A stretch of DNA of 64,000 nt from an uncultured delta proteobacterium (GTDB lineage: Bacteria; Myxococcota; Myxococcia; Myxococcales; Myxococcaceae), in NCBI GenBank assembly GCA_963771175.1, contig CAVYSY010000007.1, positions 1 through 64,000 on the forward strand. The letters run 5' to 3'. The position numbers were made by a program, and so were the translations under genes. Positions 1-62,500 of this stretch are shown piece by piece (within the stretch, counting starts at the first letter, position 1; each line of letters opens with the position of its first letter). A model generated the notes under the pieces. That model was given only the letters and a program-made list of their open reading frames with translations. It was not told the origin of the DNA and did not search any database.

Positions 1-467
1 GGCTGGCCTACCCCGCGGCCGCCGTCGCCGAGCTCTGGGAGCTCCAGCCCTTCCACGTGCGGATGACGACCGACCGGGCGAGCTGGAGCGACGCGCTTCA
101 GCTCGTGGTGGGCAACGGGCGCTACCACGGCGCGGGCAACATGGTGGCGCCCGACGCCACCCTGGATGACCGCCGCCTGGACGCCTACACCATCGCGGCC
201 CCCTCCTCCGAGTCCGGACGCGAGGGCACCGGGCTGGGGCACATGAGGGATCTCCACCCTGGCGCGCGTCGCGCTCTCCCTCCGCCGGGGCGAGCACGTG
301 AGCCACCCGGCCGTCGCCTCCGTGCGCTCCACGCACCTGTACGTGGACGCCGAGCCGCCGCAGGACGTCAACGCGGACGGGGAGCTCATCGGCCGCACCC
401 CGGTCCGCTTCGAGCTCGCGCCCGCGGCCCTGCGCGTCTACGTCCCCCTACTCGCACCCGGCACTGA
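1..467 (+). CDS. Diacylglycerol/lipid kinase family (YegS/BmrU-like), C-terminal part, frameshifted; end approximate
   Basis: Motifs VVGNGRYHGAG..PDATLDD and QDVNADGELIGRTPVRFELAPAALRVYVP lie in two frames joined near 250; the 5' end is outside the window. Confidence 0.8.
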   Translation, partial: LAYPAAAVAELWELQPFHVRMTTDRASWSDALQLVVGNGRYHGAGNMVAPDATLDDRRLDAYTIAAPSSESGREGTGLGHMRDLHPGARRALPPPGRAREPPGRRLRALHAPVRGRRAAAGRQRGRGAHRPHPGPLRARARGPARLRPPTRTRH

Positions 468-58261: not shown

Positions 58262-59321
58262 ATGCTCACCGTCAATGCCTACGCGGCCACGGCCGCGACG
58301 AAGCCCCTCGGTCCGACGACCATCCAGCGTCGTGACCTCGGCCCGCACGACGTCCTCATCGAGATCAAGTTCTGCGGCATCTGCCACTCCGACATCCACC
58401 ACTCTCGCGGTGAGTGGGGTTCGGTGGCCTACCCCGTCGTCCCCGGCCATGAGATCGCCGGGATCGTCGCCCAGGTCGGCTCCAAGGTCACCAGGCATGC
58501 CGTCGGCGACCGCGTCGGCGTCGGCTGCCTGGTCGACTCCTGTGGCGAGTGCGCGAGCTGCCGCAAGGGCGAGGAGCAGCACTGCCTCAAGGGGTTCACC
58601 GGGACCTACGGCGGCATCGGGAAGGACGGCCAGCTCACCCAGGGCGGCTATTCCACCCACATCGTCGTGACCGAGGACTTCGTCCTCAAGATTCCCGAGG
58701 GCATCGGGCTCGACGCCGCCGCGCCGCTGCTGTGCGCCGGCATCACGACGTACGCGCCGCTGCGCCATTGGGGCGCCGGCCCCGGCAAGAAGGTGGCCGT
58801 CGTCGGTCTGGGCGGGCTCGGGCACATGGCCGTGAAGCTCGCGCACGCGATGGGTGCCGAGGTCACCGTCCTGTCGCAGTCGCTGAACAAGAAGGAGGAC
58901 GGCCTGCGCCTCGGTGCGGACCACTACTACGCCACGAAGGATCCGGAGACGTTCAAGAAGCTCGCCGGCTCGTTCGACCTCATCGTGAACACGGTGAGCG
59001 CGAAGATCGACCTCGACGCCTACCTGTCGCCTGCTGGCCCTGGACGGCGCCCTGGTCAACGTGGGCGCACCCGCGGAGCCGCTCTCCGTCAACGTGTTCT
59101 CCCTCATCATGACCCGCCGGTCGTTCGCGGGTTCGCTGATCGGCGGCATCCGCCAGACCCAGGAGATGCTGGACTTCTGCGCCAGGCACCGCATCGGCGC
59201 CGACATCGAGGTCATCCCGGCCAGCAAGATCAACGAGGCCTACGAGCGAGTGCTCGCCTCCGACGTCCGGTACCGGTTCGTGATCGACACCGCGACACTG
59301 AGGTACGGCAATCCGCCGTGA
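58262..59321 (+). CDS. Zn-dependent NAD(P) alcohol dehydrogenase (cinnamyl-ADH/YahK-like), frameshift near 59030
   Basis: CGICHSD, PGHEIAG, C..C..C...C structural Zn site, [24 protein letters not shown]. Confidence 0.95.
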
Positions 59322-60707: not shown

Positions 60708-60941
60708 CTAGCGGCCGAGTTCCTTGGCCACCGCGTCCACTACCTGCTGATCGGTGGGAAAGCCGAGCGACTCCTTCCGCAACACCGTCTTGCCATCCAC
60801 GGCGATCTCGAAGCTCCCCGAAGGTCCCACCTTCAGCTCCGAGTCCAACTCCAGGTCCTTCTTCAGCGCGGCCGCCGCACGGACGGCCCGAGGCTTGTAG
60901 CCTCAACCACTGCAATAGGTGATGGTGATACGAGCGGCCAT
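60708..60941 (-). CDS. Rdx/SelW-family selenoprotein (77 aa, in-frame UGA read as Sec at codon 13); absent from the ORF track
   Basis: AAGGAGG RBS; MAARITITYCSG-U-GYKPRA...GPSGSFEIAVDG...GFPTDQQV; TGA at 60903-60905. Confidence 0.9.
60870..60888 (-). promoter_or_regulatory. Candidate bacterial SECIS hairpin
   Basis: GGCCG-U(bulge)-CC-[GUGC]-GG-CGGCC starting 14 nt after the UGA, with GU at the start of the apical loop. Confidence 0.65.
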
Positions 60942-61063
60942 GTCGGGCCTCCTTCTGGGTGTAGGGATTGAAATAACGAACGACGAGCGGCGTGCAAGCG
61001 GACAACCCATTCCAGGCCAGGAATCCATTGACGCCCGGGCGCCTCGGGGCCATGCAGGCCCCC

Positions 61064-62500
61064 ATGTCCTCCCCTCGCCCGAGTCTCGCCGCCGCCTACG
61101 ACCCCGAGCACTTCCGCCGCCTGGGACACCGGCTGGTGGACCAGCTCGCCGACCACCTCGCCCGGGCCACCCGTCGCGAGGGGCCCGTGCTGCCCTGGGC
61201 CCCGCCCGCCACCAACGTCGAGCGCTTCCCCGCGGACTTCCCCGAGGAGCCCTCTGGCGACTTCCCGGCCCTCGTCTCGCGCGTCCTCGAGGCCTCGCAC
61301 CACCTGCACCACCCGCATTACGTGGGCCACCAGGTGTCCGCCCCCCTCCCCCTGGCCGCCCTCAGCGACTTCGCCTCCTCGCTCCTCAACAACGGCATGG
61401 CCGTCTACGAGATGGGCCCCGTCGCCACCGCCATGGAGCACAACGTGCTGCGCTGGATGGCCGGAGTGCTCGGCCTGCCCGAGGGCGCGGGCGGCGTGCT
61501 CACCTCGGGGGGCTCGGCCGGCAACCTCACCGCCCTGCTCGCCGCGCGCCAGGCGAAGGCCGGCCATGACGCCTGGAACGGAGGCGCCACCGCCGGGCCG
61601 CCCCTCACCGTGCTCGTCCCCGAGACAACCCACTACTGCGTCTCGCGCGCCACCCGGGTCATGGGCTGGGGCGCCGAGGGCGTCACCCCCGTCCCCGTGG
61701 ACGCGCACTACCGGCTGCGCCCCGAGGCCCTGGAGGACGCGCTCGCCGCCGCGAAGCGTGCCGGCCGCCGCCCCATCGCCGTGGTGGCCAGCGCGGGCTC
61801 CACCGCCACCGGCGCCTTCGACCCGCTCGAGGCCGTGGCCGACTTCTGCGAGAAGCACGGCCTGTGGTTCCACGTGGACGGAGCCCATGGCGCCTCGGCC
61901 GCGCTCAGCCCCAGCTACCGCCACCGGGTGAAGGGGATTGAGCGCGCCGACTCGGTGGTGTGGGACGCGCACAAGCTGATGATGATGCCGGCGCTCATCA
62001 CCGCCGTGCTCTTCCGCGACGCGAGCCGCTCCTTCGAGGCCTTCGCCCAGGAGGCCTCCTACCTCTTCCACGGACAGGACTCCCGCCGCTGGAGCGACGT
62101 GGCGCTGCGCACCCTGGAGTGCACCAAGGAGATGATGGCGCTCAAGCTGTATGCCTGTCTCCACGTGCTCGGCACGAAGCTCTTCGCCGATTCCATCACC
62201 GACACCTTCGACCTGTCCCGCCGCTTCGCCGAGCGCCTCCAGTCCTCCGGGGACTTCGAGCTGGCCGTGCCCCCCGACTGCAACATCGTCTGCTTCCGGT
62301 ACACGCCGGAGGGTGTCCCCGCCGCGGAGCTCGACGCGCTCCAGGTGCGCCTGCGCGAGTCGCTCGTCACCAGCGGAGACTTCTACCTGGTGCAGACGAC
62401 GCTCGGCGGGCGCGTGTGGCTGCGCACCACGCTCATCAACCCGCTCACCACCGACGCGGACCTGGACGCCCTGTTGGTCGCGCTGCGCCGGGCCGCCTGA
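61064..62500 (+). CDS. Group II PLP-dependent decarboxylase (diaminobutyrate/aromatic amino acid decarboxylase-like)
   Basis: HPHYVGHQ, GVLTSGGS.GN, AGSTATGAFD, WFHVDGAHG, DSVVWDAHK (PLP Lys), NIVCFRY. Confidence 0.9.
   Translation: MSSPRPSLAAAYDPEHFRRLGHRLVDQLADHLARATRREGPVLPWAPPATNVERFPADFPEEPSGDFPALVSRVLEASHHLHHPHYVGHQVSAPLPLAALSDFASSLLNNGMAVYEMGPVATAMEHNVLRWMAGVLGLPEGAGGVLTSGGSAGNLTALLAARQAKAGHDAWNGGATAGPPLTVLVPETTHYCVSRATRVMGWGAEGVTPVPVDAHYRLRPEALEDALAAAKRAGRRPIAVVASAGSTATGAFDPLEAVADFCEKHGLWFHVDGAHGASAALSPSYRHRVKGIERADSVVWDAHKLMMMPALITAVLFRDASRSFEAFAQEASYLFHGQDSRRWSDVALRTLECTKEMMALKLYACLHVLGTKLFADSITDTFDLSRRFAERLQSSGDFELAVPPDCNIVCFRYTPEGVPAAELDALQVRLRESLVTSGDFYLVQTTLGGRVWLRTTLINPLTTDADLDALLVALRRAA

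Follow-up and report, generated by a model that had tools for sequence, protein, structure and literature searches.

An in-frame TGA within a myxobacterial Rdx/SelW-like gene, very probably decoded as selenocysteine

The question raised by this locus is whether a TGA codon on the minus strand of the window (the whole stretch of 64,000 nucleotides that was analyzed) ends a very short translation product or is read as selenocysteine (Sec) within a longer one. As read from the sequence, a Shine-Dalgarno motif AAGGAGG (60948..60954, minus strand) stands 6 nt upstream of an ATG at 60941. The frame that begins there extends on the minus strand over 60708..60941, that is, 77 codons plus a terminal TAG at 60710-60708, with an in-frame TGA at 60903..60905 as the codon for residue 13. 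The first-pass annotation, which proposed a hidden selenoprotein, had described a strong ribosome-binding site, the context TYCSG-TGA-GY and 64 further residues with GSFEI and GFP motifs up to the TAG; all of these are present in the sequence. It had also claimed that ORF callers miss the gene, and the default ORF list indeed does not contain it. When the TGA is translated as U, the product has 77 aa, with GSFEI at residues 42-46 and GFP at residues 60-62. In the congeners included in a sample of 40 relatives, the corresponding ATG also has a site of the GGAG/GAGG type ahead of it. The three nearest named relatives (75-88% identity of the protein) carry the label Archangium sp., and the source organism therefore probably belongs in or near Archangium.

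The coding character of the region beyond the TGA was evaluated with a codon usage model trained on 2705 long ORFs from the source genome, an assembly of 9.8 Mb that is 82% complete. The post-TGA part scored +26 bits in frame versus -24 to -96 bits in the other five frames. Over codons 25-73, dN/dS was 0.16-0.52 in 18/18 pairs with the window sequence, which indicates purifying selection past the TGA, and the 12 codons ahead of the TGA, Cys10 included, are conserved among the aligned sequences. Our reading of the locus, which we hold with high confidence from the sequence, is that the in-frame UGA is decoded as Sec in an intact 77-codon Rdx/SelW gene, whose product would be a thiol/selenol oxidoreductase with a Cys10-x-x-Sec13 centre.

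A central G-x-F-E-I motif followed by a late F-P motif is a mark of the Rdx family. The assignment to this family made in the first pass was borne out by HMM searches with the read-through protein, in which Cys was put for Sec: it exceeded the cut-offs of both PF10262 (Rdx, Pfam; 48.2 bits versus 22.6) and TIGR02174 (CXXU_selWTH, NCBIfam; 46.2 bits versus 34.2). For NF041051 (SelTWH_Campy), an equivalog model of Campylobacter, the score fell short of the cut-off (58.2 versus 88 bits). The source genome contains no PF10262 match other than this gene. The motif C10-S-G-U13 is located directly past a predicted strand at residues 5-9. In an alignment of 24 sequences, positions 10 and 13 (Cys10 and Sec/Cys13) are invariant in 24/24, G42, F61 and P62 are invariant as well, and F44 is kept in at least 90%; the E of GSFEI is replaced by I in 14/19 close relatives.

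The predicted structure agrees with this assignment. Among sequences of the PDB the best match was MIEN1 (E 7e-9), and SAV_2001 and Atu0228 were also matched. An AlphaFold2 model in which Cys replaces Sec (pLDDT 81, pTM 0.66) runs in the order beta1, CxxU loop, alpha1, beta2-4 and alpha2, and in a Foldseek search with this model the top 22 matches were all Rdx-family entries, with TM 0.85-0.88 to 3dex, 2obk, 2oka, 2ojl and 2fa8. The Cys-type bacterial Rdx structures SAV_2001 (3dex), Atu0228 (2fa8), 2obk, 2oka, 2ojl and 2p0g have the same fold (TM 0.79-0.88) and have the position of the CxxC and the G-x-F and FP motifs in common with the window protein. However, they are only 25-34% identical to it, are longer (about 80-105 aa) and carry Cys in place of the UGA-encoded residue. 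Two eukaryotic proteins, human MIEN1/Rdx12 (2ljk) and mouse SelW (2npb), gave TM values of 0.76 and 0.70 to the model. Eukaryotic SelW uses a SECIS in the 3'-UTR and MIEN1/Rdx12 has Cys (PMC3316567), whereas the window gene presents a UGA with an adjacent hairpin. In the latter respect it resembles the bacterial SelW-like selenoproteins described in surveys and a review (PMC1088965, PMC1794560, PMC5029168, PMC13188914), which have the same N-terminal CxxU, about 75 aa and a UGA with a downstream G-loop hairpin. Compared with these catalogued proteins, the window gene represents a myxobacterial branch below the NF041051 cut-off. Its sequence confirms it as an intact member of the known Rdx/SelW family.

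The organism was expected in the first pass to use Sec, and selA, selB, selC and selD were all found in the source genome. The tRNA-Sec (selC) scored 71.4 bits, and the frame of selD is open but for an in-frame TGA located in a UxxK motif. The selA and selB genes are frameshifted in the source assembly: an alignment of selA with two congeners showed 11 single-base indels within 1.7 kb, and pieces of selB lie in three frames. Essential genes are likewise broken in the assembly, with rpoB in 3 pieces and rpoC in 4, and an uninterrupted selA match was found in 16/17 congeners. Because rpoB and rpoC are broken too and selA is uninterrupted in nearly all congeners, the simple reading, to which these data point, would be that the frameshifts of selA and selB are assembly errors. 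Within the window, we also observed that an alcohol dehydrogenase-like gene (58262-59321, plus strand; so labelled from sequence reading) has a frameshift near 59030, which is probably another assembly error.

The first pass had proposed to check whether orthologs have TGA or a Cys codon at this position, and the relatives present precisely these two states. Of the 40 relatives searched, 28 match the protein; codon 13 reads TGA in 27 of these and TGC in the remaining one (G032), which brings the count of TGA to 28/29 when the window gene is included. In a family-wide sample of 150 genomes, an alignment search gave 110 matches, of which 108 have one TGA in the match, one is partial at a contig end and one has TGC (G070). 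The codon position of the TGA was checked only in the 28 + 15 TGA copies that were fetched. The two samples overlap, and because of kinship between the genomes the tallies should not be read as independent observations. They include an unpublished genome (G081), on which no claim rests; it accounts for one each of the 110, the 108 and the 106 given below. TGC was read at this codon in the 6 Cys copies examined. In addition, a public sequencing run of a close relative yielded a 4.5-kb contig that covers the whole gene; none of its 31 differences falls at 60903-60905.

The distribution of the TGA follows that of the Sec machinery. In the 40-relative sample, 25 of the 27 TGA genomes have selA, selB and selC. 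G021 (89% complete) has a TGA copy with selB, selC and selD, and its selA was not found. G007, a congener whose assembly is 73% complete, has a TGA copy with an intact hairpin (L034), yet searches for selA, selB, selC and selD found none of them, and a search for an ortholog of the selenoprotein peroxiredoxin was also negative; the missing sel genes could reflect either an incomplete assembly or a real loss. Eight genomes of this sample have neither selA and selB nor a TGA copy, and of these seven show no match and one is G032, with its Cys copy; five genomes that bear the machinery gave no match to the window query. In the family sample, selA is present in 106/108 TGA genomes, with selB, selC and selD in the two exceptions. 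No match was seen in 13 of the 16 relatives without selA. Both stand-alone TGC copies (G032 and G070) sit in genomes where selA, selB and selC were searched and not found.

Some of these copies deserve separate mention. In the G070 copy (L067:1581) the Sec codon reads TGC and the hairpin remains intact; selD was found in this genome, selA, selB and selC were not, and the copy looks like a recent Sec-to-Cys change. The peroxiredoxin ortholog of G070 has an internal TAG. In genus g58, each of 8 genomes has two Rdx matches, the second copy lying 300-380 bp downstream of the first, and in the four tandems examined a TGA gene is followed by a TGC paralog without an intact hairpin (L068:1535/1892, L069:1554/1924, L070:1588/1962 and L071). 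A distant Rdx-like match (33% identity, motif CVAC) was also observed at L053:3001-3198, in a record titled Thermoplasmata archaeon.

We next consider the RNA element that could recode the UGA, numbering its U as +1. A bacterial SECIS-like hairpin is predicted at 60870..60888 on the minus strand, starting 14 nt past the UGA (60888-60870), as had been claimed. Its shape had been described as a hairpin with a bulged U, and here only the hairpin stood. Better supported is a structure in which +18..24 and +30..36 pair into a 7-bp stem closed by a 5-nt loop CGUGC (60881-60877; loop G at 60880), as in the RNAalifold consensus. The nucleotide at +23 is U in the window and C in 20/28 and 12/15 orthologs (32/43 TGA copies), so that the bulged U was rejected as a conserved sign of a SECIS. 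The 7-bp form includes a U-G pair and has -11.8 kcal/mol, versus -11.2 for the bulged-U form. The two registers are nearly equal in their fit (98.6 versus 95.7% paired in the close set, 93.3 versus 93.3% in the 15 held-out copies), and for the two top pairs a bulged-pyrimidine version fits nearly as well as the 7-bp stem. The SECIS of E. coli fdhF has a bulged U, whereas the window hairpin is without a conserved one.

What supports the hairpin is its conservation and not its stability, as judged from the sequences compared. In the close set of 20 distinct rows, 98.6% of the cells are paired and three pairs show two-sided changes; in 15 further TGA copies, outside the set from which the structure was derived, 93.3% are paired and two pairs show two-sided changes. 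Six of the 15 held-out copies have an A/C mismatch at pair 22-32, and hence the stem tolerates breaks. In the 6 Cys copies the hairpin is degraded, with 64.3% paired. The loop G26 is present in 43/43 TGA copies, although in most of them it is fixed by an Arg codon as well; position +27 is U or G in 43/43 and never C, CGC being the commonest Arg codon. Among 19 close sequences, codons 14-24 show no variation at any of their 9 four-fold sites, whereas elsewhere in the gene 10/29 such sites are invariant (Fisher p 0.001, a value overstated by kinship), and the frozen codons include rare ones, CCT (5.5% of Pro) and CGT (5.8% of Arg in the source genome). The folding energy gave z -0.5 to +0.8 against shuffles, so that in this GC-rich DNA its stability does not exceed chance, and 129/1042 TGAs with coding-like downstream DNA in the source genome pass a simple bSECIS filter. 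The bacterial SECIS consensus model of Zhang and Gladyshev 2005, as a 2026 review summarises it (PMC13188914), sets a loop of 3-9 nt, a stem of 4-16 bp, a spacing of 16-37 nt and an energy of at most -7.5, with a G at loop position 1 or 2 and U or G directly after it. The window hairpin falls within these published limits, with a loop of 5, a stem of 7, G at loop position 2, a spacing of 21 nt and -11.8 kcal/mol, in line with the SECIS-like character ascribed to it in the first pass.

A second hairpin of 6-7 bp, which overlaps the UGA (60889..60905, minus strand), is predicted in the window and in close relatives. As a general feature it was rejected, since in wider sets only 82% and 77% of positions are paired, near shuffle level, and it is confined to the close relatives. 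The rare Pro codon CCT that lies in this hairpin is kept in 19/19 close sequences, and a hairpin burying the UGA would explain this frozen codon, which is otherwise unexplained.

Other readings of the codon have to be weighed against recoding. The TGA could be a true stop or a sequencing error, in which case the locus would be a pseudogene, a misread TGC or a shorter protein begun past the TGA. The assembly is rich in errors and the relatives in databases are mostly products of 40-61 aa begun past the codon, both of which fit; but the same TGA is present in more than 100 genomes, the spanning contig of the close relative shows no difference there, the codons ahead of it are conserved with Cys10, and the synonymous sites past it are frozen. 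Furthermore, to judge from the structural model, both the active-site motif and the first strand would be missing from a product begun past the TGA. This reading appears largely refuted by conservation at the sequence level, and we give it almost no weight. Just as little credit is due to a readthrough that inserts Trp or Cys and not Sec. Although W (P0002) and L (P0017) appear at this position in database relatives, this may reflect the code chosen by the gene caller. TGA is the terminator of 1882/2705 long coding-like ORFs in the source genome, and therefore UGA is not generally reassigned there; the codon also aligns with the Cys of homologs and becomes TGC where the Sec machinery was not found. 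A little less implausible, and still very improbable, is a real Sec gene of the lineage that is silent in this strain, with selA and selB truly frameshifted. The number of single-base indels in selA and the three frames of selB would agree with this, as would G007, with its TGA copy and no detectable sel genes; however, rpoB, rpoC and the alcohol dehydrogenase-like gene are broken alike, the tRNA-Sec keeps its score and the only interruption of selD is its Sec codon.

The reading that we prefer is thus the one put forward in the first pass, the recoding of the UGA as Sec. It is supported by the family HMMs, the selABCD set, the conserved TGA with its co-occurrence with sel genes, and the covarying hairpin, all within an intact frame, and from these observations we infer Sec insertion, expression and redox chemistry. 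In the established bacterial pathway, SelD would provide selenophosphate and SelA would convert seryl-tRNA(Sec) into Sec-tRNA(Sec). By analogy, SelB would bind the G-[U/G] loop 21 nt past the UGA and bring the Sec-tRNA (pathway as outlined in PMC13188914). The ribosome would then continue to the TAG, and under selenium shortage only a 12-residue peptide would be made. The full-length product, with a predicted Rdx fold and no evident signal peptide, would be cytoplasmic. Its motif and fold suggest that the active site alternates between the selenolate form and a selenenylsulfide of Cys10 and Sec13; in partner proteins of the cytoplasm it is predicted to reduce disulfides, oxidised cysteines or glutathionylated thiols. 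The Sargasso Sea paper describes the function of bacterial SelW-like proteins as unclear and deduces a redox activity from the CXXU (PMC1088965). It is conceivable, if on balance unlikely, that Sec is inserted and that the protein serves in selenium or metal binding, or as a redox switch on one partner, more than as a general reductase. In the literature examined an enzymatic role of bacterial SelW-like proteins is not established, mammalian SelW binds 14-3-3 via its Sec (PMC13437758), and one genus keeps a Cys paralog beside the Sec copy, which could mean different jobs. Against this, the invariance of Cys10 together with Sec/Cys13 in 24/24 sequences fits a two-residue redox centre, and the modelled fold is thioredoxin-like.

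As regards the genetic context, the stretch 60942..61063 between the Rdx gene and a divergent gene for a PLP-dependent decarboxylase is the presumed promoter region; a scan for promoters and terminators at the locus found nothing, and no sigma-70 consensus. Downstream and co-oriented are a small ORF of 111 aa (60589-60254, minus strand), with a weak DUF2171 match below cut-off, and then dapD (60229-59387, minus strand). The order Rdx gene, 111-aa ORF, dapD was observed in 19/19 close loci (L019-L037) and in 0/10 more distant ones (L038-L047); the divergent decarboxylase lies within 1.5 kb in 15/19 close loci, and in the 10 distant loci neither it nor the two downstream genes are near the Rdx gene. 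Since the downstream order is absent from all 10 distant loci, the gene looks free-standing, with neighbours that, to judge from the loci compared, give no hint of its function. Concerning the decarboxylase itself (PF00282; 60992-62500, plus strand), its similarity to relatives begins mostly near an ATG at 61064, and for this reason the GTG at 60992 is probably not its start.

The family of bacterial SelW-like CxxU selenoproteins entered the catalogues in 2004-2005, and the window gene is an ordinary gene of this kind. SelW-like proteins were the most abundant family of the Sargasso Sea selenoproteome, with 48 genes (PMC1088965); a 2006 survey gave 10 members, Geobacter and Desulfotalea among them (PMC1794560), a 2016 one gave 35 (PMC5029168, Table S3), and the 2026 review lists the family in its Table 1 with PF10262, CxxU and the comment 'predicted with high confidence' (PMC13188914). 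A search of paper listings gave no paper describing this myxobacterial SelW-like branch. The relatives that have been deposited are mostly 'hypothetical' proteins of 40-61 aa or truncated 'selenoprotein W-related' ones in which the active site is absent; WP_373046809.1, a 'hypothetical protein' of 61 aa, is an example of a relative cut at the codon. An exact database look-up of the read-through and post-TGA sequences gave no match, by a method that is blind to records bearing U.

Concerning Sec in myxobacteria, five genomes of Corallococcus, Cystobacter, Myxococcus and Stigmatella are recorded as Sec-positive with only 1-3 selenoproteins each (PMC5029168, Table S2, which gives counts only), the A. 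gephyra genome paper mentions a tRNA-Sec (PMC5441343), and according to the 2026 review aerobic bacteria rarely keep selenoproteins (PMC13188914). Seven further read-through candidates, whose hairpin loops are likewise G-led, came out of a rough scan of the source genome: DsbA-like (a label from motif reading), AhpD-like, TlpA-like, peroxiredoxin, PrdB-like, UshA-like and an exported CxxU protein without a family match. Five of the seven match NCBIfam redox or selenoprotein models at E below 1e-5, and only the AhpD-like one is over the cut-off (TIGR01926). The in-frame TGAs with G-led loops of these seven candidates and of selD lie in the source genome (G000) at C11:123649(+), C27:17719(+), C9:61356(-), C11:4104(+), C26:111840(-), C58:79922(-), C6:135956(+) and C26:43655(-) (loci L057-L063 and L016). 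The scan is crude, and most of the 129 TGAs that pass the hairpin filter look like frameshift artefacts. It yields at least 9 selenoprotein candidates in the source genome versus the 1-3 of the 2016 myxobacterial counts, and myxobacterial selenoproteomes look larger than catalogued.

A broader proposal, on which we are evenly divided, is that aerobic myxobacteria have a far larger Sec redox network than catalogued, with this gene among its most widespread members: the Sec gene is present in about 70% of the sampled family genomes, Cys takes its place where the machinery is missing, and the hairpin-less Cys paralog of genus g58 may be a selenium-independent backup. If this is true, cultivable and genetically tractable myxobacteria would offer a direct route to the function of bacterial SelW-like proteins, and the rule that aerobes seldom keep selenoproteins would be dented. 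The gene itself is not of a new kind. Its recognition corrects an annotation gap, in which the deposited products of relatives are without the active site, and the natural Sec/Cys pairs would allow a clean test of the contribution of selenium. Its main value would be as an entry point, together with these pairs, to the under-counted selenoproteome of aerobic myxobacteria.
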